Shown here: positions 1 through 29,209 of the stretch, one piece after another
Position numbering within the stretch: the stretch's first letter is position 1
Layout of the letters: the number at the start of each line of letters is the position of its first letter
DNA from: Caldilineaceae bacterium
GTDB taxonomy: Bacteria; Chloroflexota; Anaerolineae; Caldilineales; Caldilineaceae
DNA: 64,000 nt
Direction: 5' to 3'
Assembly: GCA_020845455.1 (NCBI GenBank)
Contig: JADLFO010000115.1
Location: forward strand, 6,235 to 70,234
The notes under the pieces: generated by a model
What the model was told of the DNA's origin: nothing
Seen by the model: only the letters and a program-made list of their open reading frames with translations
Database searches by the model: none
Program-made: the position numbers and the translations under genes

Positions 1-148
1 GCCGGGGCGCTATCCAGTGCAGGCGCTGGTCTACGATGGGGCGACCGGTGCACCAGTCGAGGCGCGGGTCGCGGGCGCAGCAGTGGACTCACCGCTGATC
101 CCGTTGGCCCGCCTGGTATATGACCAAGGCGCTTGGTCGCATGAATAA
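1..148 (+). CDS. 3' end of a gene that starts upstream of the window; it encodes the same C-terminal 'PGxY-x5-YD' module that ends the GT-C paralogs downstream
   Basis: Frame 2 is open from nt 2 and reads ...PGRYPVQALVYDGATGAPVEARVAGAAVDSPLIPLARLVYDQGAWSHE, with stop TAA at 146-148. PGRY..YD matches PRGRYTLQMGMYD (173..2200) and PGEYRLLVGWYD (7597..10227). Confidence 0.5.
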   Translation, partial: PGRYPVQALVYDGATGAPVEARVAGAAVDSPLIPLARLVYDQGAWSHE

Positions 149-172
149 ACCGAAAATCAACCTAAGCGACGC

Positions 173-2200
173 ATGACAAATAAGATTGCACTTGCTACCC
201 ATGACACAGTTCAGGCTGAGAAGGACACTCTATCCACATCCACTACTCACGCGCGGCGCGGGCTGTGGGCGCTGGCCGCGCTGGTGGCAGTTTCGCTGCT
301 GCCGCGCCTCTACTTTGTGCTGACCAACAGCCTGGGCTATGACGAGACGCACAACCTGATGTTTGCTACGCTGGCGAGCCGCGGGGCCGCGCCCTATCGC
401 GAGGTCTTTACCGGCATCGCCCCTTTCGCCCTGTTGAGCATCGAATGGAGCGTCCTGCTGTGGGGGAGCGGCCCCCAAGTTCGCCTGCTGATGATGACCT
501 ACGGCGTCTTGGCGGTGGCGGCCCTGTTCGCCATCGTCTACCGCCAGACCAAGACGCAGCCGTTGGTGGCGGCTGCGCTGGCCGCGCTGCTCTTTTCCTT
601 CCACCCGCTCTATTTCAGCGGGTCGACGACCATCAATCTGGAGTCGGCGGCGCTGGCCTTTGGGCTGCTGTCGCTCTGGGCCATGAAAGAGTACCGCAAC
701 CACCCGGCCCCCTGGCGTCTGCTGCTCTCCGGCCTGCTCTTTGGGCTGAGCATGGCGATCAAGGTCTTTGTTCCCTTTGTGCCTGCGGTCGTGCTGGTAC
801 AGATGGTGCAGCACTGGCAGGCGGCAAACGAGGGTCGCCCGCTGCGCCATGCCTGGCCCGCGCTGCTGCGCATGGGGCTGTGGTGGGCGGCGGGCGCGCT
901 GGCCGTCTTGCTGGTCTTTATTCTGCTCTTCGACCCGGTCTTGGTCTATCAACAGGTCGTCGCTTTCCGGCTGGACCTGCGCCATGAGGAGGATGTCGAG
1001 GAAGTTCGCGAGTGGGCCGAATTTGCGCAGTTTGTGCCGCTCTTTTTGGGCGCGCTCTGGGGGCTGTTCAGCCTGCGCCGCGATTCGGCGGTCTGGGTCT
1101 GGGTGGCCTGGCTGCTGTTCGGCTCACTCTTTCTCTCGCTGCACACGCCCCTGCGCACACGCCATCTGATCATCCTGCTGCCGGCCTTGGCTGCGCTCAG
1201 CGGCATGGCCGTCGCTAATGCCCTGGCTGCGCCGCGGCGCGCCTTGCGGCTGGGCGTGGCCGCGCTCACGGCGCTGGTTCTGGTCTGGATGGTAACCGCG
1301 GCGGGACAGGCGGCGCGCACCGAAAACTTCACCGACCATCATCCGGTGCGCCGCCTTTTGATCGACTACATTCGGGCGACCACGGCCCCGGACGACTGCA
1401 TCGTCTCTAAGGAGAACCGGCTGCACTTTCTGACCGGGCGGCTCTCGACGCCCTATCTGTCCGAGGTCTCTTCGGCGCGGCTGGCGGTGGGGCTGCTCAA
1501 AGCGCCCGACATCATGGCCGAGATCGACCGCCATGACTGCGCGCTGTTGGCCAACGCCGCCGCCTTCAGCGAACTGGTTCCCGACCTGCGCCAGATGGCG
1601 ATCGACTACTTCAGCCTGCATCTGGTGCAGTTTCACCCGGACGAGCCTCGATATGACCAGGAGATCTTTGCCGTCCCGCCCGACAGCGACGTGCCGGCCG
1701 GCCAGACGGCGGACTACCGGCTGGGCGACCAGTTTCGTCTGGCCGGTTGGTGGATCACGCCGGGGGCGTGGCGGCGCGGCGGCCAGGCGCAGGTCGCTGC
1801 CTATTGGGAGACGCTGCGCCCGCCCGACGCCAATTACAAGATCTTCCTGCATCTGGTCGATGCACAGGGCAGCACGGTGCAGAGCTTTGACCACTACCCC
1901 TTCGAACTGCGCGAGGAGTTTGGCATCCGGCACTATAGCCTCAACCCGCGCTATCTGACCACGCGCAAACTGCCCGGCAACTATCCCTACACCGGGCTGA
2001 TCCCGACCGAGCTTTGGCTGCCGGGCCACACGCTCAAAGAGACGCACAGCATCACCCTCCCGCCCGATCTGCCGCGGGGGCGCTATACCTTGCAGATGGG
2101 GATGTATGACGAGGGCAGCATGGCGCGGTTGCCGGTCTTTGCCGCTGGGGATGAGACCGACCTGGGGTCTGTGTCGTTGGGCAGCGTGGAGATTCGGTGA
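173..2200 (+). CDS. Polytopic GT-C-fold membrane glycosyltransferase (ArnT/PMT, GT39-like) with a soluble C-terminal module
   Basis: 675-aa ORF. The N-terminal ~500 aa is multi-pass hydrophobic. The acidic first-loop motif LGYDETHN follows TM1, as in ArnT/PMT enzymes. The C-terminal module reads FRLAGWW..AAYWETL..YKIFLHLVD..PTELWLPG..PRGRYTLQMGMYDEGSMARLPVF. The stop overlaps the next start (GTGA at 2197-2200). Confidence 0.8.
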   Translation: MTNKIALATHDTVQAEKDTLSTSTTHARRGLWALAALVAVSLLPRLYFVLTNSLGYDETHNLMFATLASRGAAPYREVFTGIAPFALLSIEWSVLLWGSGPQVRLLMMTYGVLAVAALFAIVYRQTKTQPLVAAALAALLFSFHPLYFSGSTTINLESAALAFGLLSLWAMKEYRNHPAPWRLLLSGLLFGLSMAIKVFVPFVPAVVLVQMVQHWQAANEGRPLRHAWPALLRMGLWWAAGALAVLLVFILLFDPVLVYQQVVAFRLDLRHEEDVEEVREWAEFAQFVPLFLGALWGLFSLRRDSAVWVWVAWLLFGSLFLSLHTPLRTRHLIILLPALAALSGMAVANALAAPRRALRLGVAALTALVLVWMVTAAGQAARTENFTDHHPVRRLLIDYIRATTAPDDCIVSKENRLHFLTGRLSTPYLSEVSSARLAVGLLKAPDIMAEIDRHDCALLANAAAFSELVPDLRQMAIDYFSLHLVQFHPDEPRYDQEIFAVPPDSDVPAGQTADYRLGDQFRLAGWWITPGAWRRGGQAQVAAYWETLRPPDANYKIFLHLVDAQGSTVQSFDHYPFELREEFGIRHYSLNPRYLTTRKLPGNYPYTGLIPTELWLPGHTLKETHSITLPPDLPRGRYTLQMGMYDEGSMARLPVFAAGDETDLGSVSLGSVEIR

Positions 2201-4791
2201 GGAGCGCGGTTGTCCTGGTCTTGATCGGGGCGCCGGCGGCGCATGGGCTGCTGTGGCCGGCGCTGCCCCTGACCGTGCCTCTGATTGTGCAGAGTGCGGC
2301 CGCGCTGCTGATCACCGGTCTGCTGCCCGGCTGGCTCCTGGTCGAATGGCTGGTGGGCGGCCGCGCCGCTGCCCCGCTGGGGCTGTGGGAGCGCAGCGTC
2401 TACAGCCTGGGTGCGGGCGCAAGCGTAACCGTGGTGGGGATGCTGCTCCTGAGCTATCTGCCCGGCCCGATCTTGCCCTGGCAGGTGTTGGCGGCGTTCG
2501 ATGCGCTGACCGTGGCGCTGGCGCTGCTGATCTGGCGGCGGGCGGCGAGCACAGTGCAGGCGGGGCCGGGCCGAATGCCCGCGCCGGATGGATGGCCGCC
2601 GCTGCGTCTGGGGACAGGGCCGGCCGCCGGGCTGCTGGCGCTGGCGCTGGCGGCCGGGTTCCTGCGGCTGCCCAACCTGGGCTATTCGGAATTTCAGGGC
2701 GACGAGGCGACCGCGCTGCTGCGCACCGCCGAGGCGATCCAGGGTCGCGACGGCGCGCTGCTGCTGCATCTGAAGGGGCCGGGTGAAGTCCTGCTGCCCG
2801 CCGCGAGCTATGCGCTGCTGGGGCGCATCGACGAGACGACGGCGCGCCTGCCCTTTGCCCTGGTCAACCTGACCGGTCTCTTTGCCCTCTTTCTGCTCGG
2901 TCTGCGCCTCTTTGGCCCGGTAGCCGGTTGGAGCGCGGCCATGCTCTTGGCGCTGGACGGCTATTTCATCGGCTTTGCGCGCATCGTCCAATATCAGAGC
3001 CTCGTTTTTTGCATGGCGGTGCTGGCGGTGCTGGCCGTCTACCGGTTGGTGCGTCTGCCCCGGCTGTTGCCCGGCTATCTGCTGCTGGCCGCGCTCTTTC
3101 TGACCACCGGCCTGCTCGCCCACTATGAAGGCGCACTGGCCGGTCTGCCCGTGGCCTATCTGCTCTTTGTGCTGGGGCGCAGGGTGGGCGCGGGGCGGCT
3201 GGCGCGGGCGCTGGCGATCCCATTGGCGCTGGGCGCGGCGCTGCTGGGAGCCTTCTATCTGCCCTTTGTGCTGCACCCCAACTTTCGCATCACCTACGCC
3301 TATATCACCGTCAACCGCATCGGTGTTGGTTCTGGCGGGGGCAGCTTTCCCTATAACAACCTGGCCGATGTCTTTGACCGCACCCTGCTCTACAGCACCG
3401 TCTACTATGTGGCGCTGCTGGTGATCGTCACCGTCTGGGGGCTGATCGGTCTCTACCGGCGCAGCCTGCCCGCGGCTTGGGGCTGGGCCGTGGCCGCGCT
3501 GGTCGTCGCGGGTGTGGCGTTGAGTGTGGCGCGCCCTGCCTGGCTGCAGATCGGCGGGCAGGATCACACCTGGGCTTTTTTTGTCCTGGCGCTGGCCCCG
3601 GTCTGGTTTCTGCCTAGGCTCACGGTCGAAAAGCGGCTGGCCTGGCTTTGGTTTGGCGTGCCTCTGCTGGCGATGCTCTTTTTCATCCGCACGCCCAACA
3701 CGCATGTCTACGGCTTTTTCATCGGCTGGGCGCTGGTGGCGGGCAGCGTGATCCAGGCGGGCTGGGCGGCGCTGCGCGCCCGCTGGGGTTGGCGCGTCGC
3801 GACTTGGGCCGGGGCTGCGGCGGCGCTGGCGCTGACCCTGCTCTTTGGCAATTATGCCTATTGGTACTTTGTGGCGTCGGACCAAGAGGTGCTGCGCACT
3901 TGGCGCGACAGCCGACCGCGCGGCTATTGGGTCCCCTATACGATACCCACCGCCCTGTCGATCTTCGGCTTTCCGCTGCAGAACGGCTGGAAAACGCTGG
4001 GCGTGCTCTATGCCGAAGGCGCGCTCGACGCGCCCTTCGATACCAACGGCAAACCGCCCGTGGCCGAGTGGTACACGCGCGGCCAGGGCTACTGCCCGCG
4101 CGACCACGGCTATTTCGTCTGGCAGCAGCCGGTCGAACCCGCGGCGCAGGCGGACGCCCAGGCGCTGCGCGGCCAACTGGAGGCCGAGGGCTATCATCTG
4201 TGGGGGCAGGTGATGGTCAACGCGCAGCCCCGGCTGGCGATCTATCGACGGACCGGTCTTCCGCCGGCGGTGCAGAGTTTTTCCGCCGAGACGATGGCGG
4301 CGCGCTTTGACGCCGCGCTGTCCGGCCCTGTTTTTGAGCGCGTCGGGCCGACCGCCGTGCCCGCCATCGCCCATCCTCTCGACTTTCGCTTTGGCGATAC
4401 GATCCGGCTGGTGGGCTATACGCTGGCCCGCCAGGACGTACAGCCGGGCGGCCGCGTACATCTGACGCTCTATTGGCAGGCGAGCGCGCCCATCACGGCG
4501 GCCTACAGTGTCTTTACGCAGGTCATCGCCCCCGCCGACGCGACCAAGGCGGGCCAGCGTGACGGTGAACCGGGCTGCAACCTCGCCCCCACCTCTACCT
4601 GGCCGCCGGGCACGATCATCGCCGACCGCTATTCGATCCCGCTGGCGGAGGGGGCGCGGCCCGGAACCTATCAACTGTTGGTCGGCATGTATGGCCGCGA
4701 GAGCGGCGAACGGCTGGCGATCTTTAGCCCCAGCGGCGACCCGGTGGGCGACGCCCTGGGCATTGACGAAGTGCGGGTCGCCGCGCCATGA
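2197..4791 (+). CDS. Polytopic GT-C-fold membrane glycosyltransferase (ArnT/PMT-like) with a soluble C-terminal module
   Basis: 864-aa ORF with many hydrophobic helices and the loop motif LGYSEFQGDEATALLR. The C-terminal module reads IRLVGYTL..VHLTLYWQA..PTSTWPPG..PGTYQLLVGMYGRESGERLAIF. It overlaps the next gene by ATGA at 4788-4791. Confidence 0.8.
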   Translation: MRSAVVLVLIGAPAAHGLLWPALPLTVPLIVQSAAALLITGLLPGWLLVEWLVGGRAAAPLGLWERSVYSLGAGASVTVVGMLLLSYLPGPILPWQVLAAFDALTVALALLIWRRAASTVQAGPGRMPAPDGWPPLRLGTGPAAGLLALALAAGFLRLPNLGYSEFQGDEATALLRTAEAIQGRDGALLLHLKGPGEVLLPAASYALLGRIDETTARLPFALVNLTGLFALFLLGLRLFGPVAGWSAAMLLALDGYFIGFARIVQYQSLVFCMAVLAVLAVYRLVRLPRLLPGYLLLAALFLTTGLLAHYEGALAGLPVAYLLFVLGRRVGAGRLARALAIPLALGAALLGAFYLPFVLHPNFRITYAYITVNRIGVGSGGGSFPYNNLADVFDRTLLYSTVYYVALLVIVTVWGLIGLYRRSLPAAWGWAVAALVVAGVALSVARPAWLQIGGQDHTWAFFVLALAPVWFLPRLTVEKRLAWLWFGVPLLAMLFFIRTPNTHVYGFFIGWALVAGSVIQAGWAALRARWGWRVATWAGAAAALALTLLFGNYAYWYFVASDQEVLRTWRDSRPRGYWVPYTIPTALSIFGFPLQNGWKTLGVLYAEGALDAPFDTNGKPPVAEWYTRGQGYCPRDHGYFVWQQPVEPAAQADAQALRGQLEAEGYHLWGQVMVNAQPRLAIYRRTGLPPAVQSFSAETMAARFDAALSGPVFERVGPTAVPAIAHPLDFRFGDTIRLVGYTLARQDVQPGGRVHLTLYWQASAPITAAYSVFTQVIAPADATKAGQRDGEPGCNLAPTSTWPPGTIIADRYSIPLAEGARPGTYQLLVGMYGRESGERLAIFSPSGDPVGDALGIDEVRVAAP

Positions 4792-7346
4792 ACGCTCCCC
4801 TCACCCGCCAACGGCTGCTGCTGGCCGCGCTGGGGCTGGCGCTCTGTCTCTGGCTGCCGCGCGCCGCTGCGCTCGACCAGTTTGTCACCGCCGACGAACA
4901 CGCCTGGCTGGCGCGGTCGGGCAACTTCTACTATGCGCTGGCGCGCGGCGATTGGGCTAATACCTTTCAGCGCCATCACCCCGGCGTGACCGTGACCTGG
5001 GCCGGGCTGATGGGGTTTCTGATCCGCTATCCCCAATATGCCTGGGACGCGCCGGGGCAGTTTGGCTGGCTGACCGAAGAGATCGAGCCGTTTCTGCGCA
5101 GCCAAGGCCATGACCCGCTGGAACTTCTGGCCGCGGGGCGCAGCGTCGTCGTGGTGATCATCACCGCCACGCTGCTCGGCGTCTTTTGGCTGGCGGCGCG
5201 GCGCTTTGGGCTGTGGCCCGCTGTGCTGGGCGTCGGGCTGATCGCCTTTGACCCGTTTCACATCGCCCACTCGCGGCTGCTGCACCTCGACGGGCTGGTG
5301 AGCAGCCTCATGCTGCTGGCGGTGCTGGCCTGGCTCGACTATCTGGTCACACGCCAGCGGAGCACGTTGATCATCGCCGGGGTGGCGACCGGGCTGGCCT
5401 GGCTGACGCGCTCCCCGGCCTTTTTTCTGGGGCCGCTCTTGGTGGCGCTGACCGGGCTGGCGCTTGTGTGGCTGCCCGCCCAGGGCACGCCACGGCCCTG
5501 GGCGGCCTGGCTGCGCGGGGGCCTCATTTGGGGAGGGATCGCGGCAGGGGTCTTTGTGCTGCTCTGGCCCGCCATGTGGGTCGACCCGCTGGGCAGCCTG
5601 CGCCAAGTGCTGGACGCCGCCGAGGAGTACGCCGCCGAAGGGCACCTCAAACCGATCTTCTTCAACGGGGCCATCTATGCCGGCGACCCCGGCTTTGCCT
5701 TCTACCCGATCACCTATCTGTGGCGCAGCACGCCCATCACTTGGATCGGGCTGGCGCTGGCCGCGGGGGCCTTTGCGCTGCGCCGTGCCCCGCTGGAGAG
5801 CCGCCCGCGGCGGTTTGTGGCGGTGTCGCTGCTCGTCTATGCGTTGAGCTACATGCTCTTTATGAACCTGGGCGCCAAGAAGTTCGACCGCTATCTGCTG
5901 CCCAGCTATCTGCCGCTGGACCTGCTGGCTGGGCTGGGCTGGGGCGCGGCGCTGCTCTGGGCGCGGCAGGTTGCGATCCGCCGCGGCACGCTGCGCTATC
6001 TGCCGCCGGCCGCGGCCGCCATCGTGGCGGCGCAGGCCGCGCTGGCGCTGTCCACCTTTCCCTATTACCTGACCTATTACAACCCGCTGATGGGCGGCAG
6101 TGGGCGCGCGCCGCAGGTGATGATGATCGGCTGGGGCGAAGGCGCAGACGTGGCGGGCCGCTATCTGGATGCCAAACCCGACGCCGCCGCGCTGACGGTC
6201 GCCTCCGGCTATACCAACGGCCCTTTCTCCTATTTCTTCCGCGGGCGCACGCTGCCCATCACTTTCTGGCATAAGGCCGATTACGCCGTGCTCTTTGCCC
6301 AAGACTGGCAGCGCCAACTGCCCTCGCGCAAATCGGTCGCCTACTTTCAACACCTCACGCCCGAGCAGGTGATCACGCTCGACGGGCTGGACTACGCTCA
6401 CATCTATAACCTGGGCAGTGCGCCCCTCCCCGACTATGTGACCGGCTGGCGCATGGCGGATGATGGCGCGCCGGATGGTGGCGCGCCGGATCATGAAGTG
6501 ATCCGGCTGGTCACCTTCCAACTGCCCGCCGCGCCGGTGCAGCCGGGCGAGACGGTGCGCACCGTCTTCTATCTGGTCAACCAGGGGCCGATTGCGACCA
6601 ACCTCAACGTGCTGGTGCGCGTGGTGGGGCATGACGGCGCGGAGATCGCGCGCGCTGAGGGCTGGCCCTGGGGCGCGGCCACCAGCGGTTGGCAGCAAGG
6701 CGTCGTCTGGCCCGATGGTCATGACCTGGCGATCCCTGCCGATACGCCGCCCGGCTATTACCGTGTCGAACTGGGCTTCTATGATCCAGAGACGCAGGCG
6801 ATGCTGCCCGCCTTCCAACTCGCCGGCGGCGCAGAATTGGGCGATCTGGTCACGGTCGACACGATCCAGGTGGGCGACTTGCCCGACCCGCCGCAGCCGC
6901 TGACGCCGCCCGCGCTCATGGGCGGGCAGATCGCGCTGCTGGGGGCCGGCTGGCAGAACGGCGACGGCCCCGCCTGGGGGTCGCACGCGCCCACACTGTC
7001 GCCCGGCGACACGCTGCGAGTGGAACTCACCTGGCAGGCGCAGACCTGGCCCGCGACCGACTATACCGCCTTTGTCCATCTGGTGGGGCCCGACGGCAGC
7101 CTGGCGGCGCAAATGGATAAACCGCCGCTGGGCGGCTTTCTGCCCACCAGCACCTGGATGCCCGGCCAACGCGTGGTGGACAACTTTGTCTTGGCGCTGC
7201 CCGCCGGCGTCGTGCCGGGCGACTACCGGCTGCTGACCGGCTTCTATGACCCGGCGAGCGGGGCGCGGCTGGCGGTGACCCAGGGGGATCAGCCCGTGGG
7301 CGATGCGTTTGAACTGGCGACTGTGCCTGTCCAGGCCGCGCCGTGA
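4788..7346 (+). CDS. Polytopic GT-C-fold membrane glycosyltransferase (GT39/ArnT-like) with two tandem C-terminal modules
   Basis: 852-aa ORF with loop motif LDQFVTADEHAWLARSGNFY. It is clearly paralogous to 7597..10227 (shared HPGVT, AFDPF, KKFDRYLLP, YYNPLMGG, IGWGEG). Two module copies end in PPGYYRVELGFYDPETQAMLPAF and PGDYRLLTGFYDPASGARLAV. Confidence 0.85.
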   Translation: MNAPLTRQRLLLAALGLALCLWLPRAAALDQFVTADEHAWLARSGNFYYALARGDWANTFQRHHPGVTVTWAGLMGFLIRYPQYAWDAPGQFGWLTEEIEPFLRSQGHDPLELLAAGRSVVVVIITATLLGVFWLAARRFGLWPAVLGVGLIAFDPFHIAHSRLLHLDGLVSSLMLLAVLAWLDYLVTRQRSTLIIAGVATGLAWLTRSPAFFLGPLLVALTGLALVWLPAQGTPRPWAAWLRGGLIWGGIAAGVFVLLWPAMWVDPLGSLRQVLDAAEEYAAEGHLKPIFFNGAIYAGDPGFAFYPITYLWRSTPITWIGLALAAGAFALRRAPLESRPRRFVAVSLLVYALSYMLFMNLGAKKFDRYLLPSYLPLDLLAGLGWGAALLWARQVAIRRGTLRYLPPAAAAIVAAQAALALSTFPYYLTYYNPLMGGSGRAPQVMMIGWGEGADVAGRYLDAKPDAAALTVASGYTNGPFSYFFRGRTLPITFWHKADYAVLFAQDWQRQLPSRKSVAYFQHLTPEQVITLDGLDYAHIYNLGSAPLPDYVTGWRMADDGAPDGGAPDHEVIRLVTFQLPAAPVQPGETVRTVFYLVNQGPIATNLNVLVRVVGHDGAEIARAEGWPWGAATSGWQQGVVWPDGHDLAIPADTPPGYYRVELGFYDPETQAMLPAFQLAGGAELGDLVTVDTIQVGDLPDPPQPLTPPALMGGQIALLGAGWQNGDGPAWGSHAPTLSPGDTLRVELTWQAQTWPATDYTAFVHLVGPDGSLAAQMDKPPLGGFLPTSTWMPGQRVVDNFVLALPAGVVPGDYRLLTGFYDPASGARLAVTQGDQPVGDAFELATVPVQAAP

Positions 7347-7508
7347 GGCAGGGAGACCATGGGTCATCCCGGCATTTGCGCGCCTATGGGCGCTGCATGT
7401 GCGGCTAGAAAACTGCACCGATGCGAAAGCCCCATTGATGGGGCGTGGTTCCTTGGCCCGGCAGCTTTAGCTCCGGGCGGGCTGAATTGCGTGCCAAGCC
7501 GTGTGGTT

Positions 7509-7538
7509 TTCAAAACGCCTGCCCGCGTGTGATATGAT
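7509..7538 (+). promoter_or_regulatory. Candidate sigma70-type promoter for 7597..10227
   Basis: TTCAAA (7509-7514), an 18-nt spacer, then TATGAT (7533-7538) preceded by TGA (an extended -10 TGnTATGAT). It lies in the only sizeable gap (250 bp) of the GT-C array. Confidence 0.35.
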
Positions 7539-7596
7539 GCACGTTGCTTTGGGGGGAGCAGAGGCGCCCCCGTGTGTCCATTGAGGAGAGTTTATT

Positions 7597-10227
7597 GTGT
7601 TAGAGAATATCAACCGCGCTGAGGCCGGTTTGCCGGTGGCCTCGACCGCCGGTAAAGCGATAGCGCAGCGCCAGAGCCGCGTGGGGGCGCATACCCGGCT
7701 TGCCACCCTGATCGCCGTAGCGGTCGTCGCGCTGGCGATCTGGCTGCCGCGCGCCTTTCAACTCGACCACTTTGTGACGATCGACGAGAGCAAATGGTTG
7801 GTGCGCGCCGGGAACTTCTACCAAGCGGTGGACAGCAGGACCTATGAGAACACCTTCCAGCACGGCCATCCGGGCGTGACGATCATGTATGCAGGGCTGG
7901 CGGGCTATCTGTGGCGCTTCCCCGACTATATTGAGAAGGTCGGCAGCCAGCAGCTTTGGAGCGACGAGTTCGCCCAGGCGCTAGAGTCCAACGGACACCA
8001 GCCGATCGATATGCTGGCCGCGGGACGCACCTTTATCGTCCTCTTCAATGTCATCGCCCTGTCGGTTGCCTTTGTCTATGCCATCAACCTGCTGGGTTTT
8101 TTACCCGCCCTGCTCGGCTTTTTGCTGATCGCCTTTGACCCCTTCCAGACGGCGCTTTCGCGCTTTTTGCATCCCGACAGCCTGCTCAGCCCCTTTATGC
8201 TGCTGGCGGCGTTTGCGTTGATGCACTATCTCTTTGCTGGGCGGCGGCTGCGCGACCTGATCGTCGCCGGCGCAGTCACCGGGCTGGCGATGTTGACCAA
8301 GACCCCGGCGATCTTCCTGCTCCCGCTGGCCGGGCTGTTCTGCCTGATCGAACTGGCCGACCAGATCACGTCGCGGCCGGGCTGGCGCTGGCGGGAGTTT
8401 TTGCGCTGGTCGTCGCTGAGCCGCATCCTGCGCACGCTGTTGATCTGGGGCGGGGTGGCGGCGCTGGTCTTTGTGACCTTGTGGCCCGCCATGTGGGTCG
8501 CGCCCTGGCAGACCATCAGCCAGGTCTTTGGCATCTCCGCCTTCTATGCGACCTCCGGGCACGGCAGCCCGGTTTTTTTCAACGGCACGATCTACAACGG
8601 CAACCCCGGCGCCGACTTCTACCCGATCAACTTCCTGTGGCGCACCACGCCGGTGGTTATGCTTGGCATCCTGCTCTTGATCCCCGGTTTCTGGCTGACG
8701 CGGCGCATCCAAGACCGCCGCGTGCGTCTTACGGCGCTGGGCATCGCCTCGATGGCCTTTTTCTTTATGGTCTTTATGAGCCTGGGCGCCAAGAAGTTCG
8801 ACCGCTATTTGCTGCCGGTCTTTATGCCTGTGGACCTTCTGGCCGCGCTGGGGCTGGCGATGGTGGCGCAGCGGCTCTTTCAGGCGCGCAGCCTGGCATG
8901 GATGCGCGGCCTCACGATTGCGCTGCTGGCTGTGGCGGTGGGGGCGCAGGCATGGCAGTCGCTGCCCCTCTTTCCCTATTACATGGACTATTACAACCCG
9001 GTGATGGGCGGGCCGGCCAAGGCCCCGGACGTGATGTTCATCGGCTGGGGCGAAGGGCTGGACGAGGCGGCGCGCTACTTGAACGATACGATCGACGTAA
9101 AGACGAACACCGTCGCCTCGTGGTATGAGCGCGGGCCGTTCAGCTATTTCTACAAGGGCCTCTCTACGCCCGACGAGCGCATTTGGGAAGCCGACTACTC
9201 GGTGCTCTACCGGCACCAGTGGCAGCGCGAACTGCCGACGCGGCGCATGTTGTCCAACTTCGACCAGTTGACGCCCGAAAAGAGCATCTGGCTCAACGAT
9301 ATGGAATATGTGCGCGTCTATGATATGCAGAAGGCCCCGCCCGCCGACTATATGGTCGAATGGAACGATGCCCTGCGCCTCGTCTTTTATGAGAACGACT
9401 CCGGCTCGGTCTATCCGGGGATGTGGTATGACGTCAACCTGTTCTTCCTCAAGACTGCGCCGGTGGATGTGAACTACAACATGCTGATGCGCGTGGTCAA
9501 CCCCGCCGGGGATGAACTGATCAAGGTGGACGAATGGCCCAAGGGCTGGCCGACGACGCAGCTTCAGGTGGGCCAGGTCTTGACCGATGTGCGTCATGGC
9601 CTCTTTATCTCCGAGGTGACGCCGGTGGGACCCTATCGCATTGAGGTGAGCTTTTATGACCCGGCGACCTTCGACCGGCTGCCCGCCAGGTCGGTGCGCA
9701 CCGGCCAACCGGCGGCCGACCCCTATGTGCTAGACTATATGGTGGTGGGCGATTGGCCGCTTGCCCCGGCGGGGCGCATCAGCCCCGCGGTCAACCTGGG
9801 CGATCAGGTGGAACTCTACGGTGCGGACCTGGTTCAGCCCGACGGCACGACGCGCAAGCTGGACGACGTGACCGTTGCACCGGGAGAGAGCCTCACGCTG
9901 CGCCTCAACTGGAAGGCGCTGGACTTTATCTACCAGGATTACACCGTCTTTGTACATCTGGTGGGGCCGGACGGACGGCCGATTGTGCAGGGCGACAGCC
10001 AACCCATGCACGGCTTTATCCCAACCTCCTATTGGCCGCCGCATCAAAAGATGGCGGACGACCATATGCTGACGATCCCGGCGGATGCCGCGCCCGGCGA
10101 ATATCGTCTGCTGGTCGGCTGGTATGACCTGGAGAGCCTGCAGCGGCTGCCCATGACGCAGGGGCAGAAAGCGATCGGCGACGCCTATCAGGTCGCGACT
10201 GTGACTGTGCAGGCGGCTGCCCGTTAG
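7597..10227 (+). CDS. Polytopic GT-C-fold membrane glycosyltransferase (GT39/ArnT-like) with two tandem C-terminal modules
   Basis: 876-aa ORF with GTG start at 7597, 6 nt after GAGGAGAG (7584-7590). Loop motif LDHFVTIDESKWLVRAGNFY. Paralog of 4788..7346. Module copies end in PVGPYRIEVSFYDPATFDRLPA and PGEYRLLVGWYDLESLQRLPM. Confidence 0.85.
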   Translation: MLENINRAEAGLPVASTAGKAIAQRQSRVGAHTRLATLIAVAVVALAIWLPRAFQLDHFVTIDESKWLVRAGNFYQAVDSRTYENTFQHGHPGVTIMYAGLAGYLWRFPDYIEKVGSQQLWSDEFAQALESNGHQPIDMLAAGRTFIVLFNVIALSVAFVYAINLLGFLPALLGFLLIAFDPFQTALSRFLHPDSLLSPFMLLAAFALMHYLFAGRRLRDLIVAGAVTGLAMLTKTPAIFLLPLAGLFCLIELADQITSRPGWRWREFLRWSSLSRILRTLLIWGGVAALVFVTLWPAMWVAPWQTISQVFGISAFYATSGHGSPVFFNGTIYNGNPGADFYPINFLWRTTPVVMLGILLLIPGFWLTRRIQDRRVRLTALGIASMAFFFMVFMSLGAKKFDRYLLPVFMPVDLLAALGLAMVAQRLFQARSLAWMRGLTIALLAVAVGAQAWQSLPLFPYYMDYYNPVMGGPAKAPDVMFIGWGEGLDEAARYLNDTIDVKTNTVASWYERGPFSYFYKGLSTPDERIWEADYSVLYRHQWQRELPTRRMLSNFDQLTPEKSIWLNDMEYVRVYDMQKAPPADYMVEWNDALRLVFYENDSGSVYPGMWYDVNLFFLKTAPVDVNYNMLMRVVNPAGDELIKVDEWPKGWPTTQLQVGQVLTDVRHGLFISEVTPVGPYRIEVSFYDPATFDRLPARSVRTGQPAADPYVLDYMVVGDWPLAPAGRISPAVNLGDQVELYGADLVQPDGTTRKLDDVTVAPGESLTLRLNWKALDFIYQDYTVFVHLVGPDGRPIVQGDSQPMHGFIPTSYWPPHQKMADDHMLTIPADAAPGEYRLLVGWYDLESLQRLPMTQGQKAIGDAYQVATVTVQAAAR

Positions 10228-10245
10228 CCGTACCGCATAGGAAAA

Positions 10246-10275
10246 AGCGGCTTGCCCTGACGTCAGGGCAAGCCG
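10246..10275 (+). terminator. Perfect 15-bp palindromic hairpin after the GT-C array
   Basis: GCGGCTTGCCCTGAC/GTCAGGGCAAGCCGC lies 19 nt after the stop at 10227. There is no clear T-run. Confidence 0.45.
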
Positions 10276-10390
10276 CCACCCCTGAAATCGGGCTGCTGTT
10301 CTCCGCTTGATTTCGCGCCCGGCTGCGCGCCGGTCCCTCGTCTATTCATTTCTGTTTCGGAGGCTGTAGAAACGCCGCTAGGATTTCCCC

Positions 10391-11489
10391 ATGCGTCCTG
10401 CCGAGCGTTGGGCGGTTGTTTTCGATTGGCTCATCCCGCTCTTGCTCCTGCTGCCGCTGGCCTGGGCGCTGCTGCCGGGCGGCGTCGTCAACACGGCGGA
10501 CGGCAAGGTGCATTTTTACCGCGCCGCCGAAATGATCCACGCCTGGCAGGACGGCGTGCTGATCCCGCGCTGGTCACAGCATTTGGGCTTTGGCTACGGC
10601 ATCCCGCTCTTTGTCTATACGCCGCCGCTGCCCTCCTTTCTCACCGCCGGTCTGTATCACCTTGGCCTTACCCCCGAAGCCGCCTTCAAAGGCATGTGGC
10701 TGATCGCCATACTGTTGGCCGGCTACGGCGCTTACCATCTGGGGCGTGGGCTGCTGGACCGTTGGGCTGGGGCCGTGACGGCAGCCGCTTTTCTCTATAC
10801 TCCTTTCTTTCTGTGCGAACTCTTTATCCAGGGTAACGCCGCCCAATATCTGGCGTGGAGCTTTACGCCGTGGGTGGCGGCGGCGGTGATCCGGCTCTAT
10901 CGCGCCCCACGCGGGCGCGATGCCGTCTATTTGGCGCTGGCGCTGATGGGCGTACAGTTGAGCCATCATGTGGTGGCGTTGTTTGCGGCAGGGATGGTGG
11001 CTGGGTTGGGTCTGATCCTATTTGCTGTCACGCGCGACCGGCGTGGGTTGGGCTGGACCGTGGCAGGCGGCTGCTTGGGGCTGGCGTTGAGCGTTTGGTT
11101 CTGGGGGCCGGCGCTGCTGGAGGGACGCTATGTGGCGCTCAACCGCATCGTCGCCAGCGATTTTCATGCGCGCTTCATCCCCCTGGCTGAACTGACGGCC
11201 TGGCCGCCGCGCCTCGATACGGCGGCGATCAACCCCTATGTGGCGCTGACGCTGGGCGCGGTCCAAATTGCCGCCGCGCTGTTGGGGCTGGTGGGCGCTG
11301 CTGCGGCGCACCCCGCCCGGCGCGGCCCTGCCGGCTGTGCAGACGCGCGTCCTGGGCGGCGTGGCGCTGGATGCGCTGCAGCAGATCGCCGTGGGCGTCT
11401 ATCGGTTAGAGAGCGGGGAGCGTCTGCCCGCCGTCGACGGGCATAGCGTGCGCTTGGCCGGCGACGCGCTGATGCTCGCCTGGCCGTAG
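10391..11489 (+). pseudogene. Truncated/frameshifted PTPS-related (YfhO-like) GT-C-type membrane protein: the N-terminal membrane part is joined out of frame to the tail of the shared C-terminal module
   Basis: The frame of 10391..11446 gives a sensible polytopic sequence (DGKVHFYRAAEMIHAWQDGVLIPRWSQHLGFGYGIPLFVYTPPL...) up to ~11300, then Arg/Ala-rich junk. A different frame (11268..11489) ends ...LDALQQIAVGVYRLESGERLPAVDGHSVRLAGDALMLAWP, which is the end of the module seen in the five genes upstream. The total is ~365 aa, against 675-876 aa for the paralogs in this window. Confidence 0.5.
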
Positions 11490-11499
11490 CGGGGAGGTT

Positions 11500-12591
11500 T
11501 TAGGTGGATGCGTAAGTTTCCGCCGCGGCGGAGATGACCTCGCGCACGAAGTAGATCGGCTTTTGCTGGCTTTCGTGATAGGTGCGGATGATCATCTCGC
11601 CCAGCAGCCCCATCGTGATCAACTGCACGCCGATGACCACCAACAGCACCGCCAGCAGCAGCAGCGGACGCCCGCCGATGTCTTGGCCGAGCGCCAGTTT
11701 GAGGAAGGTCAAGTAGATGCCCGCCAGCAGGCCGGCCGACGCCGAGGCCAGGCCGATCGTGCCGAAGACATGGATGGGCCGCGTCGCATAGCCGCCCAGA
11801 AACCAGACCGTGATCAGGTCCAGTGCCACACGGATGGCGCGGCTGATGCCATATTTGGACTTGCCAAACTGGCGGGCGTGGTGGTTGACCGGCACTTCGG
11901 CCACCGTGCCGCCCACCTGGCTGGCCAGCGCCGGGATAAAGCGGTGCAGTTCGCCGTAGAGCCGCACATGCTGGAGCAGGTCGCGGCGATAGGCCTTGAG
12001 CGAACACCCATAATCGTGCAGCCGCACCTCAGTCACGTTGGAGATCAGCCGGTTGGCGATCATCGAGGGCAGCCGCCGGTCCCAGAAACGGTCCTGCCGC
12101 TCCTTGCGCCAGCCGGAGACAATGTCATAGCCTTCGTCGATCTTAGCCAAGAGCAGCGGGATATCGCGCGGGTCGTTTTGCAGGTCGGCGTCCATGGTGA
12201 CCACGACCTCTCCGCGCGCCTGGTCGAAGCCTGCTGAGAAGGCGGCGGTCTGCCCAAAATTGCGGCGCAGCCGGATCACCGTCAGCCGCGGGTCTGCCTG
12301 CGCCCAGGCGCGCAGCAGCGCAAAGCTGCCGTCGCGCGAACCGTCGTCCACGATGATGACCTCGAAGAGAATGTCGAAGCTCTCCAACGCACCGAGCAGC
12401 CCGGCGCGCAGGCCGGGAATACTCTCCTCCTCGTTATAGAGCGGGATCACGACGGAGAGCTTGGGCGGGCGCGCCTGCGGCGATAAAAGAGCATCGCGGG
12501 CCGGTGTAGATAGGCGAGTCTGGGTGCTCATGGTGTCATTATAGGGCGCATGGGCCAAATGCCCAATCCCCAGCGATGGACTGAGGGCCAT
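11500..12591 (-). CDS. GT2 polyprenyl-phosphate sugar synthase (GtrB/ArnC/DPM1-like)
   Basis: Motifs LSVVIPLYNEEESI, VIIVDDGSRDGS, NFGQTAA and TMDADLQNDPRDIP, followed by two C-terminal TM helices (PIHVFGTIGLASA..., RPLLLLAVLLVVIGVQLITMGLL). The likely true start is ATG 12531 (MSTQTRL). Confidence 0.9.
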   Translation of the reverse strand: MALSPSLGIGHLAHAPYNDTMSTQTRLSTPARDALLSPQARPPKLSVVIPLYNEEESIPGLRAGLLGALESFDILFEVIIVDDGSRDGSFALLRAWAQADPRLTVIRLRRNFGQTAAFSAGFDQARGEVVVTMDADLQNDPRDIPLLLAKIDEGYDIVSGWRKERQDRFWDRRLPSMIANRLISNVTEVRLHDYGCSLKAYRRDLLQHVRLYGELHRFIPALASQVGGTVAEVPVNHHARQFGKSKYGISRAIRVALDLITVWFLGGYATRPIHVFGTIGLASASAGLLAGIYLTFLKLALGQDIGGRPLLLLAVLLVVIGVQLITMGLLGEMIIRTYHESQQKPIYFVREVISAAAETYAST

Positions 12592-12615: not shown

Positions 12616-14259
12616 TTACTGGCTGACGGTGGCGCTGTCGCCGTCGAGCGTGGTCTGCGCGCCGTCGATCATGCTGCGGTAAACATCGCCCAACCCCACC
12701 ACGACCGGGTGATGCCAGGCGCGCGCTGCCGCCACCAAAGGGTCAAGCGGCGAACCCAGCGCGGCCACAAAGCCGTCGGCCAGAGGCAGCCCCAATGCCC
12801 AGCCGCTGTCGAGCATCTCTGCGCCCATGATCGTGTGATGGCAGCCGTTTTTGCGCGTCGCCGTCCAGCGGCGCAGGGGGCCGCCGGCATGTCCGGCTAC
12901 GCCGGGCAGCCCTTGGCGTACGGGCTGCGCTTCCTGCTCGCCGATCAGCATATCGGACGGATGGCTGGTCTGATGGGCGGCATGCTGCGCCTGGCGTTGG
13001 GCCAGCGTGGCGCGGATCTCCTCCTGCGCGCTGATGTTCCACTCGCCGGTCATCATCAGCTTGATCTCCTCCAATTCGAAGAAGAAGATCTCGTCGGGGC
13101 TGCGCAGCCGCCCGTCGCTCATCGCTTCTTGCGCCGCGGCCAAGACCCAGCGCCGCGTCCCGGCCAAGATAAAGGCCAGCGCCTGCAGGGCGCGGCTTTG
13201 CAGCGTATGCATGCCGTGAAGCCGTTCCAGCATCTGCCGGCCCTCCTTGCGCGCCGCGGGCTGCAGCGTTTCCAGAGCCTCCTGGGCATAGTTCACCGCA
13301 GGCATCTTGGCCGGTCGGCGGGGATGGTATTCGATACAGGCCAGCAGGCTGCGCATGACCATGGTCGGGTCTTCGTTCCAGCGCGGGTTAGCAAGTTCGC
13401 CCTCTCCCATGGCGCGGTGGCCAAAGCGCGAGAAGAAATCGGCCAATGCTTCGGCTGTGGGCCGGCCGGGGAACTCCGTGCGCCAGTTCTGATAGTTGCC
13501 TGTCTTGAGCCAGGCGACGGCGGCGGCAGGGTTCTGCGTCTGCTCGGCGATGTCGATAATCGCCGTCGCCATCTCCAATTCGACCAGCCCGGTTAGGTCG
13601 GCCAGCGCGCTGTTGAGCAGCAGCAAAGTCTGCTGCGGGTCATGCCCCTCGGCGCCGGCGGCCAGCAGCCGCGCATAGAGGTTGGTCAGTTGGTGGCGAG
13701 CGGCCAAAAAGGCCATCATGCTGTCGCGCCCGGCGCGTTCAATCTCCTCCATCACCTGAAGGATCTCCGCCTGGTTCCAGTGCGCCTCGCGCGTTTTGAT
13801 ATGCCAGATCTGCGCCTGCTGGGTGGCCGTCTCGATCTGGCCGGCTAGGTGGGCAAGCTGCTCGTCGATCTTCTTCTGGGCGCGACCGAACTTAAAGCCC
13901 CCCAGCAGCCCCGGTTTCTCCCAGGGAGCCAAGGGCCAGGGCGTGCCGTTGACGCGCAGGATGATCGGGGCGACCCCGGCCTGCTGCGCCTCCAGCTTGG
14001 CGGAGATCGACAGGTTGAGATAGGCGCGCCCTTGATAGACGCACAGCACATTAGCCCGCGCCGGGGGCGAGAAGCCCAGCCGGTCGTAATAGGTATCCCA
14101 AGCCCGGCGGATGATCTCTTCTAGGACGGTAATGCTAAACGGGGTCAACGGTCCGGCAGCTACCGGCTGGATGGCGCGGTTGCTCCACACCGATTCGGAG
14201 TTGCCGGGCAGCGTGCCCGGCAGCATATAGTCGAACAAGATCAATCCCTCTTCGTCCAC
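12616..14259 (-). CDS. PEP-utilizing-enzyme-like protein (central plus mobile 'swivel' domain only, resembling the C-terminal two thirds of rifampin-phosphotransferase/PEP-synthase-like proteins)
   Basis: 547-aa ORF. The C-terminus GLPGVAGHAGGPL..MGAEMLDSGWALGLPLADGFVAALGSPLDPLVAAARAWHHPVVVG aligns to the PEP-utilizer mobile domain. No ATP-grasp N-terminal domain is present in the ORF. Confidence 0.65.
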   Translation of the reverse strand: MDEEGLILFDYMLPGTLPGNSESVWSNRAIQPVAAGPLTPFSITVLEEIIRRAWDTYYDRLGFSPPARANVLCVYQGRAYLNLSISAKLEAQQAGVAPIILRVNGTPWPLAPWEKPGLLGGFKFGRAQKKIDEQLAHLAGQIETATQQAQIWHIKTREAHWNQAEILQVMEEIERAGRDSMMAFLAARHQLTNLYARLLAAGAEGHDPQQTLLLLNSALADLTGLVELEMATAIIDIAEQTQNPAAAVAWLKTGNYQNWRTEFPGRPTAEALADFFSRFGHRAMGEGELANPRWNEDPTMVMRSLLACIEYHPRRPAKMPAVNYAQEALETLQPAARKEGRQMLERLHGMHTLQSRALQALAFILAGTRRWVLAAAQEAMSDGRLRSPDEIFFFELEEIKLMMTGEWNISAQEEIRATLAQRQAQHAAHQTSHPSDMLIGEQEAQPVRQGLPGVAGHAGGPLRRWTATRKNGCHHTIMGAEMLDSGWALGLPLADGFVAALGSPLDPLVAAARAWHHPVVVGLGDVYRSMIDGAQTTLDGDSATVSQ

Positions 14260-14599
14260 CGCGCCGGGTCTGTCGCCGGCGTTTGCGGTGCTAACCTACA
14301 GTTGATATCTGCTCGGATGGCAGGATGGCGTCCCACACAAACTCCAATTGTGTATCCTTTACAATCGCGTGTCAATTCTATGCCTCAGCCATTTTTGTCC
14401 CTCAGCCATGTTCTCTCCCTCAGTCATTTGTCTGTCAGACTTGCGTCAGTCCTCCGGGTGCGCCCGCGCCGCAAAGCGTGTATACTGTGGGGGTACACAG
14501 CGCGGGCCGGCGACCGCCGGCCCGGTCGATGTCTCCAGTTGAACACCGATTCTCCCAGCAGATTCACCCGACCCTTTTGAGCCGTTTACACAACCGTTT

Positions 14600-18489: not shown

Positions 18490-19626
18490 TTATTCCCTGC
18501 GTAACCCGCTGGCGATCAGCTGCCGGTAGGCGGCGATGCGCTGGGCGCGCAGGCTGCGTTTGTAGCCCACCAGCCACTTGGCCCCCTCCAGCGCCAGTTG
18601 CAGGCGATATTCCAGCAGTAGATAGCGGCGCAGCGCCGCGGCCCAGCGCGGCCCAAAGACTTTTTCGGTGTAAAGCAGTTTGCTGCGGTTGAAGTGGAGA
18701 TGGCGGGCGGCGACCACCTGCTCGCTGCTGCGCCCTTCGTGATGCACGACCCACGCCTCCGGCACATAGACCACGCGGTAGCCCGCGGCCTTCAGGCGGC
18801 GGCAGAGGTCTAGCTCCTCGCTGTACATAAAGAAGCGTTCGTCAAACGGCCCGGCGTACCCGGCTTGGCGGATGGCCTCCAGCGCGCTGCGCCGGGCGAG
18901 CATCGCCGCGCCCACCACCCAATCGACATCATGGCGAAAGGCGGTGGGCCAGCCCGCCATATGCAGCCGCCGCGCCCAGGGGTTGCCGGGCCAGGCGCGG
19001 CCCAGCCAAGTGCTTTCAAAAAAGCCGGTCAGCGGTGTAGGAAAGCGGCGGCGGCTGCTCTGCAGGCTGTTGTCGCCATAGCGCAACTGCGGCCCCGCCA
19101 GCCCCACCGTCGCGTCGTCCGCCACGGCGTGATATAGCTCCCACAGGCTGTCGCCGTGGAGCCGGTCCTGCACCAGTTCGGTGTCGGGGTTGAGGAAATA
19201 GATAAAGCGGCCCCGGCCGGCGGCATAGCCCAGGTTGTTGCCGGCGGTAAAGCCCAAGTTGGCCGCGCTGCGGATCACCCGCACCCAGGGGAAGCGCGCC
19301 GCCACCCGATCCGGCGTGGCGTCGTGGCTGGCATTGTCCACGACGATCACTTCCAGTGTGGCGCGCGTGCCATGTTCCTCCGGCCCAAAGACGCGCACAT
19401 CCGGCGGGCCGGGGCGCGGACTGCTGGCCTGTTCGATGCTGTGGAGACAGGCGCGCAGCAGTTCCCAGACATTCCAACTGACGATGATGACCGACAGGTC
19501 GACCGGAGCCGGGTCGAGCAGGGCGGAGGTCTGGGGAGATGGATCAGGGCGCAGCGAGAGGCGCGCCGGCAGCCGCGGGTCAGTAGGTGCGTTGGACGAC
19601 AAAGTCGCACAGCTCCAGCATGGCAA
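18490..19626 (-). CDS. GT2 family glycosyltransferase (rhamnosyl/galactosyl-transferase-like, soluble type)
   Basis: Motifs [48 protein letters not shown] and FLNPDTEL. The annotated start overlaps the upstream gene by 47 nt, so the true start may be an internal alternative codon. Confidence 0.85.
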
Positions 19627-25385: not shown

Positions 25386-25657
25386 AGAGCACGCCATCAG
25401 AACTGTCATCCGAACCAGCGGGAACAAGCCATCGCAAAGACGCGTGTGCGGACAGGGCATCGACCGGCCCCCGCCGGTCGCCTTAGCGTTTTGAGATCGG
25501 CCTGCCCCGCGACCTATCCCCCGGCCATGAGATCCGTGCGGCGGGCATCGCCCTGCCCAGGCCCAAGTGTAAAAAAGCCAACTTGCGAAGATACCCCGCA
25601 GAGGCTCATATAGAAGTCCGGTACTGTCACTCAGAAACTGTCTACGAGGAGAATGGT

Positions 25658-27226: not shown

Positions 27227-27233
27227 GCAGAGG

Positions 27234-27283: not shown

Positions 27284-27319
27284 GACCCGCTGCCCACTTG
27301 GATAAGGAGCGTTGAGCCT

Positions 27320-28270: not shown

Positions 28271-28277
28271 TCATCTC

Positions 28278-29192: not shown

Positions 29193-29209
29193 CTCTATCC
29201 ATGAGCAAA

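Follow-up and report, generated by a model that had tools for sequence, protein, structure and literature searches.

We analysed a 64-kb stretch of a Caldilineaceae (Chloroflexota) genome with a GC content of 65%, hereafter the window, which opens with a tandem array of genes for large membrane glycosyltransferases of the GT-C type, named here g0 to g5, followed by GT2a, a gene for a predicted donor synthase (Table 1). We propose, at a probability of about 0.7, that the locus encodes a polyprenyl-phosphate-sugar-dependent glycosylation system working at the outer side of the cytoplasmic membrane. An earlier note on this DNA, made from the sequence alone, had counted five GT-C genes on the same strand plus a decayed sixth; of these, g1 to g4 hold by Pfam and g5 holds as a remnant of the PTPS_related type, whereas the partial gene at 1..148, g0, is plausible only. 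The end motif of g0, PGxYxxxxxxYD, aligns with the C-termini of GT-C open reading frames (ORFs) in many related loci, each match being non-significant (E 0.2-4), and from this motif g0 is probably a further GT-C paralog.

The GT-C fold (CAZy GT39/GT83-like) is supported for g1 to g3 by Pfam and for g4 by Pfam and a predicted structure. All four proteins exceeded the gathering cut-off of PMT_2 (26.1 bits), with 28.2 bits for g1, 35.0 for g2, 30.8 for g3, and 45.8 for g4; the PMT family was matched above its cut-off by g1 (32.2) and g4 (23.6 vs 22.7), below it by g3, and not at all by g2. The g5 remnant matched PTPS_related with 40.7 bits (cut-off, 26.4) over model positions 2-194 of 621. An NCBIfam scan of g1 to g5 returned no ArnT model and only weak Agl23 matches (28-36 bits vs a cut-off of 126), and none of these proteins matched the Pfam arabinosyltransferase (Emb/Aft, GT53/GT85) or GT87 mannosyltransferase families. 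Along their full length g3 and g4 are 44% identical, and g2 has an N-terminal extension with about four additional hydrophobic segments ahead of its FQGDEA motif. The AlphaFold2 model of g4, built on an alignment with 66 homologues, reached a predicted local distance difference test (pLDDT) score of 94.1 and a predicted template modelling (pTM) score of 0.91, and consists of a helical membrane domain (residues 17-458), an alpha/beta subdomain (472-560), and two beta-sandwiches (approximately 587-717 and 727-871). Foldseek searches of the PDB with this model gave ArnT (5f15) as the best match at E 6e-9, in a range of 6e-9 to 6e-5 that also took in yeast and human STT3, ALG9, ALG12, AglB, PglB, Pmt1/2/4, DPY19, and AftD, and the matches of the membrane part were GT-C enzymes exclusively. 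As a single sequence g4 found no match in the PDB, and Pmt chains, weakly scored, were the sole matches of its family profile. The ArnT/PMT-like nature claimed for these proteins in the earlier note is thus borne out by profiles and, for g4, by structure, and no fold other than GT-C emerged for the membrane part.

The four acidic first-loop motifs that the earlier note had pointed out were all found. D63 and E64 of g4 are invariant across 67 homologues of the g3/g4 family, and in an all-clade alignment of 67 paralogs of related genomes the Asp is aligned in 64 and the Glu in 56. In the g4 model, the pair lies between the first transmembrane helix (TM1, 17-53) and the first-loop helix (62-79), which is the place, directly after TM1, where GT-C enzymes have their catalytic acid. 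When the g3/g4 profile was compared with single sequences by hhalign, g1 and g2 were aligned through the C-terminal domain only and g5 showed no similarity, so that homology of the membrane domains was left unconfirmed in this comparison.

That C-terminal domain, of about 140 residues, is present in one copy in g1 and g2 and in two copies in g3 and g4 (residues 582-876 of g4, window positions 9340-10224), and its end is seen in the g5 remnant and in g0. Its hhalign probability against the g3/g4 family profile was 98.8% for g1 and 99.4% for g2, and by sequence it had no match in Pfam at E up to 0.1 or in the PDB at E up to 10. Sub-threshold matches to Wzt_C, NPCBM_assoc, and DUF4832 on other proteins were non-significant and were not used to argue for sugar binding. 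When the C-terminal 295 residues of g4, which cover both copies, were modelled on their own, the model had a pLDDT of 96 and resembled tandem Ig/FnIII folds (RbmA, transglutaminase C-terminal barrels, and complement MG domains) in Foldseek. A search of 1.84 billion cluster representatives found the module in 18,195 of them at E <= 1e-3 and in 8,891 at E <= 1e-10, typically as 2-4 tandem copies at the C-terminus of proteins of 800-1100 aa; the carriers that were sampled had PMT_2, PTPS_related, TMEM260-like, or GT87 membrane domains, and there were also double GT87+PMT_2 proteins. The module is a widespread accessory of GT-C enzymes, and being so widespread, attached to several GT-C families, and devoid of a Pfam model, it merits a domain-family definition of its own.

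The ORF coordinates given in the earlier note were reproduced exactly by our ORF map, and both of the 4-nt overlaps claimed there exist, GTGA at the g1/g2 junction (2197-2200) and ATGA at the g2/g3 junction (4788-4791). These are the two overlapping junctions of the array; the g0-g1 and g3-g4 spacers measure 24 nt and 250 nt, respectively. The same starts for g2, g3, and g4 were called independently on L001, a contig 99.7% identical to the window from an unrelated sequencing run (L-numbers denote related loci retrieved from other genomes or samples). A genome scan found 571 related stretches, of which the best 80 were all from Chloroflexota, the closest being isolate CFX7 (96%). Among the candidates scored, 1157 were related to g4 at E <= 1e-5, the named ones belonging to Caldilineaceae, Litorilinea, Ardenticatenaceae, or "Chloroflexi". 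By BLAST against the window proteins, 78 related loci of up to 20 kb were annotated. At least two GT-C genes lay within the sequence read in 50 of the 78 loci, with a maximum of seven. A Caldilineaceae metagenome-assembled genome carries seven; Litorilinea aerophila and Litorilinea sp. have at least seven confirmed GT-Cs in a row, or nine with two unconfirmed neighbours. In these comparisons, the array is not peculiar to one genome, being conserved across Caldilineaceae and present in other Chloroflexota.

In a neighbour-joining tree, g1, g2, g3, g4, and g5 fall into separate orthologous clades, with further paralogs besides. The order g2-g3-g4 is common to the window, Litorilinea, and others, a g1 orthologue stands upstream of g2 in L016, and Litorilinea and others have g2 orthologues of 862-873 aa at the corresponding place. 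Since the clades and the gene order are shared across genera, the duplications must be older than these genera. Compared with isolate CFX7, dN/dS was 0.11 for g4 and 0.21 for g3. Given their age, conserved order, and purifying selection, the paralogs are not redundant copies, and most likely each of g1 to g4 serves a different acceptor site or linkage. As a separate observation, a GH77 4-alpha-glucanotransferase gene is directly upstream of, and co-directional with, the array in two Caldilineaceae (L082, 1-773; L083, 3030-4604); the corresponding side of the window is cut off at g0.

The last gene of the array, g5, appears from its sequence to be a pseudogene with an internal deletion of about 1.6 kb and a frameshift. 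Its N-terminal approximately 303 codons (10391 to about 11300) are joined out of frame to the last approximately 60 codons (11307-11489), which encode the C-terminal approximately 60 residues of the same protein, ending in ...IAVGVYRLESGERLPAVDGHSVRLAGDALMLAWP and a stop. This tail is 40-44% identical to orthologue C-termini, with a corresponding match at the DNA level (tblastn and blastn against L047 and L032), and as the two parts are in different frames, the tail of the ORF 10391..11446 is out-of-frame sequence. Full-length orthologues have 904-918 aa, such that about 540 codons are missing. The gene taken for a decayed sixth in the earlier note is indeed a GT-C remnant of the PTPS_related type, but it arose by internal deletion and frameshift rather than by mere truncation. 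L001 (Logan SRR24928198), the one independent contig of this strain, covers window positions 1797-11273 and ends about 30 nt before the junction (approximately 11300-11306), which therefore rests on one assembly; the junction could be polymorphic or difficult to assemble.

Other members of the array are missing from the window: Litorilinea, L018, L082, and L084 have a further paralog that separates g4 from g5, and L032, L047, and L082 have one or two GT-C genes on the minus strand that separate g5 from the GT2 gene; in Litorilinea, minus-strand paralogs also come after g5. As these paralogs are lacking and g5 is broken, the window holds a reduced version of a family-wide array. One might go further and take these same losses as the mark of a decaying relic whose redundant duplicates are heading for disappearance; however, this seems highly improbable to us, because the frames of g1 to g4 are intact, their codon statistics are gene-like (GC at third codon positions, GC3, of 0.83-0.85 in g1 to g4 and of 0.74-0.85 across the ORFs of g1 to g5 and GT2a, all of which look like real genes in this respect), their catalytic residues are kept, their dN/dS values are as low as given above (0.11-0.21), and their orthologues have been retained across genera.

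We next consider the source of the sugar donor. GT2a matches Pfam Glycos_transf_2 at E 1.8e-36, its residues 39-355 align with the ArnC structures 8vxh (E 6.8e-70), 9bhc, and 9hwj, and its residues 44-352 align with Synechocystis GtrB (5ekp, E 5.5e-45), followed by an archaeal dolichyl-phosphate mannose synthase (5mlz). As the full-length alignment with ArnC and GtrB takes in the DAD motif (MDADLQN) and the two C-terminal membrane helices (hydrophobic segments 275-302 and 300-336), GT2a is a polyprenyl-phosphate glycosyltransferase, and the GtrB/ArnC-like GT2 that the earlier note had placed at this site, convergent with the array, is found there. With the NCBIfam ArnC model NF007986 it scored 257.2 bits against a cut-off of 529, so it is no ArnC equivalog and its sugar cannot be named. 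Most likely, GT2a is the donor synthase of the array.

A GT2 gene of this kind, defined as ArnC-like, with a coverage of at least 70% of GT2a, and lying within 10 kb of the array, was linked in 13 of the 78 related loci, and in 5 of the 30 loci with full flanks, against a chance expectation of about 1% by a rough estimate. It stands beside the array in seven Caldilineaceae loci in differing orientations. In the window it is convergent with the array, whereas L024, L032, and L047 have it on the strand of GT-C genes that it abuts or overlaps; in L082 it also runs in the direction of the GT-C genes. The gene order of L084 is Rph-like gene, GT2, and four GT-Cs, all on one strand, with the same right-hand neighbours as in the window (NUDIX, AsnC-like, and PPC protein genes). 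As the GT2 of relatives is co-directional with GT-C genes that are in part lacking here, its convergent position in the window is secondary. Linkage of GT2 and array is frequent and not obligatory.

The Rph-like gene, too, is by its distribution a conserved partner of GT2a and the array. It is directly upstream of GT2a in the window, L024, L032, L047, L082, and L084, that is, in every Caldilineaceae locus with the GT2, and it adjoins the array in L005, L009, and L010, where the GT2 is absent. Its product resembles only the C-terminal two-thirds of rifampin phosphotransferase (Rph)/PEP synthase (residues 524-860 of PDB 5fbs), which correspond to a substrate-binding-like part and the swivel domain; in the latter (GSPLDPLVAAAR), the usual phospho-histidine motif TSH is not evident.

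In the mechanism that we propose, GT2a, anchored by its two C-terminal helices, would charge polyprenyl phosphate at the cytoplasmic face with one sugar taken from a nucleotide sugar, a step suggested by homology, and some flippase would then carry the lipid-linked sugar across the membrane. On the outer side, g1 to g4, and probably g0, would use this donor to glycosylate an acceptor positioned close to the membrane, an activity to which their fold and motif point, and the one or two Ig/FnIII-like C-terminal domains may help with the acceptor. Pmt1-Pmt2 and EmbA-EmbB form heterodimers, and the 4-nt overlaps between g1, g2, and g3 suggest that their products are made in stoichiometric amounts and possibly assemble into hetero-oligomers.

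Several observations weigh against this proposal. No ArnC-like GT2 was present within 10 kb in 65 of the 78 loci, although many of these are short contigs, and arrays without a nearby GT2 occur in L005, L009, L010, and L083, the first three of which keep the Rph-like neighbour; given L005, L009, and L010, the donor may have another origin. The minus-strand GT-C paralogs with which GT2a shares its direction in relatives are missing here, and in the window GT2a is only a convergent neighbour of g1 to g4. No flippase gene was found in the window, nor was an LPG_synthase_TM-type gene found in the retrieved Caldilineaceae loci. The structural matches of g4 span the acceptor classes (ArnT for lipid; STT3 and Pmt for protein; ALG and AftD for glycan) and do not discriminate between them, and the equivalence of the motif with the Asp-Glu pair of PMTs is one of position, as the Pfam and PDB alignments stop short of it. 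Finally, since Foldseek matched the C-terminal model with generic Ig/FnIII folds and with no carbohydrate-binding module (CBM), the module gives no clue to the acceptor. The observations on the GT2 are what one would expect if GT2a were a mere neighbour belonging to a different pathway and the GT-Cs were fed by unlinked synthases. We consider this unlikely, because in L024, L032, L047, L080, and L084 GT2a directly precedes GT-C genes on the same strand and abuts or overlaps them, a GT2 heads the Anaerolineales cassette described below, the pairing survives inversions, and its frequency is far above the rough chance estimate.

With regard to the flippase, scans of the window ORFs agree with the earlier note in that no GtrA-like flippase, lipopolysaccharide (LPS), O-antigen, or arabinogalactan gene is nearby. 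Every intergenic gap between 1 and 18.5 kb is at most 340 nt, so there is no room for a GtrA-like gene in that part. Viewed as a three-component system, the locus has a synthase and GT-Cs, which are linked, and a candidate for the third component is to be seen in the Anaerolineales version. In eight loci of this order, we found a cassette consisting of an ArnC-like GT2, an LPG_synthase_TM protein of about 320-340 aa, a 667-aa protein without a Pfam match, and one or two PMT_2 GT-Cs of about 560-620 aa, of which our literature search found no published description. The LPG_synthase_TM protein, related to the flippase domain of MprF, is a candidate for the lipid-linked-sugar flippase in Anaerolineales. 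The linkage of a GT2 carrying C-terminal membrane helices with a GT-C acting outside the membrane recalls the Gtr three-component systems, as they are described in PMC11127046 (after Mann and Whitfield, 2016). Those have a GtrB synthase, a GtrA flippase, and one serotype-specific GT-C, whereas here there is no GtrA, SMR, or MATE gene and there are four to nine GT-Cs per locus; in addition, the array GT-Cs are proteins of 675-876 aa with Ig-like C-terminal domains, in a host without O antigen or LPS.

A comparable likeness exists with the ArnC/ArnT pathway of lipid A, and one could suppose that the array modifies a membrane lipid or glycolipid, changing surface charge or antimicrobial resistance, with an aminosugar donor made by GT2a. 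In structure g4 matches ArnT best, GT2a comes nearest to ArnC over its full length (E 7e-70), aligning end-to-end with 8vxh, 9bhc, and 9hwj, and databases call some homologues "ArnT family glycosyltransferase". Even so, we hold such a function to be quite improbable. GT2a falls far below the equivalog cut-off of ArnC (257 vs 529 bits) and g1 to g5 have no NCBIfam ArnT match; no arnA, arnB, arnD, or arnE/F gene was found among the ORFs scanned across the 64 kb; ArnT has about 550 aa and no beta-sandwich domains; and one lipid modification does not need five to nine divergent and conserved paralogs. The passage of PMC13319060 that cites Sutcliffe describes Chloroflexota as having no LPS or lipid A genes, and an ArnT-type role on lipid A is unlikely. 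The conclusion of the earlier note, that this is extracytoplasmic glycosylation rather than a classical LPS modification, is therefore one we share, there being no ArnT or ArnC equivalog and no other arn genes in the window.

What the acceptor is can be addressed through Litorilinea aerophila, the closest cultured relative, which carries an orthologous array (VIGC02000001.1, about 36-55 kb). Densities at Thr66 and Thr145 of its archaellin have been interpreted as O-glycans, for which the machinery is unexplained (PMC12488501), and its envelope has inner and outer layers of undefined composition together with an S-layer-like lattice (PMC13319060; bioRxiv 10.1101/2025.08.19.671072). Thus, both candidate classes of acceptor, protein and envelope glycan, exist in an organism that has the array. 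We tentatively favour Ser/Thr residues of secreted or surface proteins, glycosylated in a PMT-like manner, while granting that the odds for this acceptor stay below even; a non-LPS envelope glycan that is built or decorated is a serious candidate that we hold with a little less conviction, and lipids or something else take the remainder. Protein O-glycosylation is put slightly ahead because of the PMT-family matches and the O-glycosylated surface protein of the relative, and glycan assembly comes close behind because of the size of the array and its conserved order.

The resemblance to PMT-type systems, such as yeast Pmt1-Pmt2, the actinobacterial Pmt with Ppm1, and the streptococcal GtrB-PgtC2 and Pgf systems (PMC12041528), lies in the PMT/PMT_2 matches, an Asp-Glu pair that by position falls at the first outside loop, and the presumed use of a lipid-phosphate-sugar donor made by a GT2. 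In the PMT family, paralog sets with distinct substrates and heterodimers also occur. On the other hand, bacterial PMT systems have one or two GT-Cs and not an array, and the MIR domain is absent here. C-terminal beta-sandwich modules are not known from PMTs.

If the acceptor is instead an envelope polysaccharide, such as that of an inner or outer layer in filamentous Caldilineae, the paralogs could act on it in sequence, as an assembly line on the outer side of the membrane in which a single lipid-linked sugar serves for different linkages. Such a line concerns only the acceptor and leaves the core mechanism as proposed; we regard it as a real prospect with clearly less than even odds. In mycobacteria, EmbA/B/C, AftA-D, and MptA-C are GT-Cs of arabinan and mannan synthesis, each making a different linkage. 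The 50 loci with tandem arrays of two to seven large GT-Cs are reminiscent of embCAB, the paralogs are ancient and keep their order, AftD is among the Foldseek matches of g4, the same C-terminal module is found on GT87-type and double GT87+PMT_2 proteins, and the envelope layers of Litorilinea, undefined in composition, are possibly polysaccharide. Both embCAB and the Aft/Mpt enzymes share with the array the tandem GT-C paralogs, the large extracytoplasmic beta-rich C-terminal domains, and, presumably, the polyprenyl-phosphate sugars. They differ from it in sequence family, as no GT87 or arabinosyltransferase Pfam match was obtained for g1 to g5, in the donor, which for embCAB is decaprenyl-phosphate arabinose derived from phosphoribosyl pyrophosphate while a GT2 synthase is found here, and in the C-terminal domains, which in the array are Ig/FnIII-like and not CBM-like by Foldseek. 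Furthermore, no priming phosphoglycosyltransferase, polymer exporter, LCP ligase, or other polysaccharide gene is in or next to the array.

More speculatively, the arrays may be the main builders of an envelope structure specific to Chloroflexota, a proposal that we consider rather unlikely as it stands. A multi-enzyme and possibly hetero-oligomeric GT-C line running on one lipid-linked sugar would make the glycan of the inner or outer layer in filamentous Caldilineae and Anaerolineae, or would heavily glycosylate S-layer or appendages, with the Ig-like module positioning the acceptor. Cryo-tomography has revealed Chloroflexota envelope layers of undefined composition in a phylum without LPS and BAM genes. 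If true, the arrays would be a functional analogue of the mycobacterial arabinan and mannan machinery in a different phylum and would offer a genetic handle on the question of a monoderm versus a diderm-like envelope in Chloroflexota.

Full-text literature searches gave no characterised pathway or acceptor for GT-C arrays, ArnT, or PMT systems of Chloroflexota, so the other outcome that the earlier note had foreseen, an array already tied to a known pathway, did not arise. What they did return were tallies of carbohydrate-active enzymes in which GT83 ranks among the most abundant glycosyltransferase families of Caldilineae and Anaerolineae. Neither the enzyme classes nor the general mechanism is new, and the proteins already bear the database label "glycosyltransferase family 39"; the advance is in context and scale, not in kind, along with an accessory domain hitherto undescribed. 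For extracytoplasmic glycosylation in Chloroflexota, the most obvious candidate is this conserved block of GT-C genes, up to 20-25 kb long, kept by selection, and linked to a donor synthase; it offers defined genes for experiments in a relative that can be cultured.

Table 1. Features of the array region and of the related Anaerolineales cassette (positions in the window unless a locus is named).
Feature	Position	Strand	Description or basis
g0, probable GT-C paralog, 3' end of gene cut by window edge	2..148	+	49-residue translation, ends in PGRYxxxxxxYD
g1, predicted GT-C glycosyltransferase, 675 aa	173..2200	+	Motif GYDETHN; one C-terminal beta-sandwich (~506-675); Pfam PMT, PMT_2
g2, predicted GT-C glycosyltransferase, 864 aa	2197..4791	+	Motif FQGDEA; one C-terminal beta-sandwich; Pfam PMT_2
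g3, predicted GT-C glycosyltransferase, 852 aa	4788..7346	+	Motif TADEH; two C-terminal beta-sandwich domains; Pfam PMT_2
Sigma-70-like promoter match, g3-g4 spacer	7509..7538	+	TTCAAA-18-TATGAT with TG, 9/12 positions; weak, consensus match only
g4, predicted GT-C glycosyltransferase, 876 aa	7597..10227	+	Motif TIDES (D63/E64); two beta-sandwich domains; Pfam and AlphaFold2 model
Perfect 14-bp GC-rich palindromic hairpin	10246..10277		Sequence
g5, putative PTPS_related-type GT-C pseudogene	10391..11489 (ORF 10391..11446, 351 aa)	+	Pfam, tblastn/blastn
GT2a, predicted ArnC/GtrB-type polyprenyl-phosphate glycosyltransferase, 363 aa	11500..12591	-	Pfam, PDB matches
Rph/phosphoenolpyruvate (PEP)-synthase-like protein, 547 aa, without ATP-grasp part	12616..14259	-	Pfam PEP-utilizers, PDB Rph 5fbs
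Sigma-70-like promoter match upstream of Rph-like/GT2a pair	14347..14375	-	TTGACA-17-CACAAT, 10/12 positions; consensus match only
Anaerolineales cassette	L038, L040, L041, L042, L052, L063, L071, L073		e.g. L042 5883-11740

The hairpin downstream of g4 starts 19 nt past its stop codon and has its T-run on the minus strand, where no gene ends at present. It was set aside as a terminator of g4, the T-run being on the opposite strand, and may be a leftover of an ancestral arrangement or a bidirectional terminator.

Some genes to the right of the Rph-like gene were considered as further parts of the pathway and rejected. The product of 19580-20611, a polyprenyl synthetase, makes long trans-prenyl chains of the quinone type, the second GT2 (18490-19626) belongs to no specific family, and the PGM/PMM-type mutase (21633-23078) scored best on an archaeal GlmM model, below its cut-off; none of the three is conserved beside the array in relatives. 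A secreted PPC-domain protein of 715 aa (14600-16747, plus strand), with a sub-threshold match to a type IX secretion system sorting domain, lies between the Rph-like and AsnC-like genes both in the window and in L084 (1449-3584); it was rejected as an acceptor, having no Ser/Thr-rich linker.

Neither an Rfam family nor a tRNA was detected in the window. The gene calls at 34331-36612 are ambiguous, as a plus-strand ORF of 602 aa (34801-36609), whose product has an Rce1-like CAAX protease domain, overlaps with two long ORFs on the minus strand that lack a Pfam match (34331-35566 and 35563-36612), and none of the three passed the codon-statistics filter. The regions 25583-31541 and 38341-57591 are unusually dense in oligopeptide/dipeptide ATP-binding cassette transporter genes; about four operon-like groups together encode six SBP_bac_5 binding proteins, eight permeases, and four ATPases.

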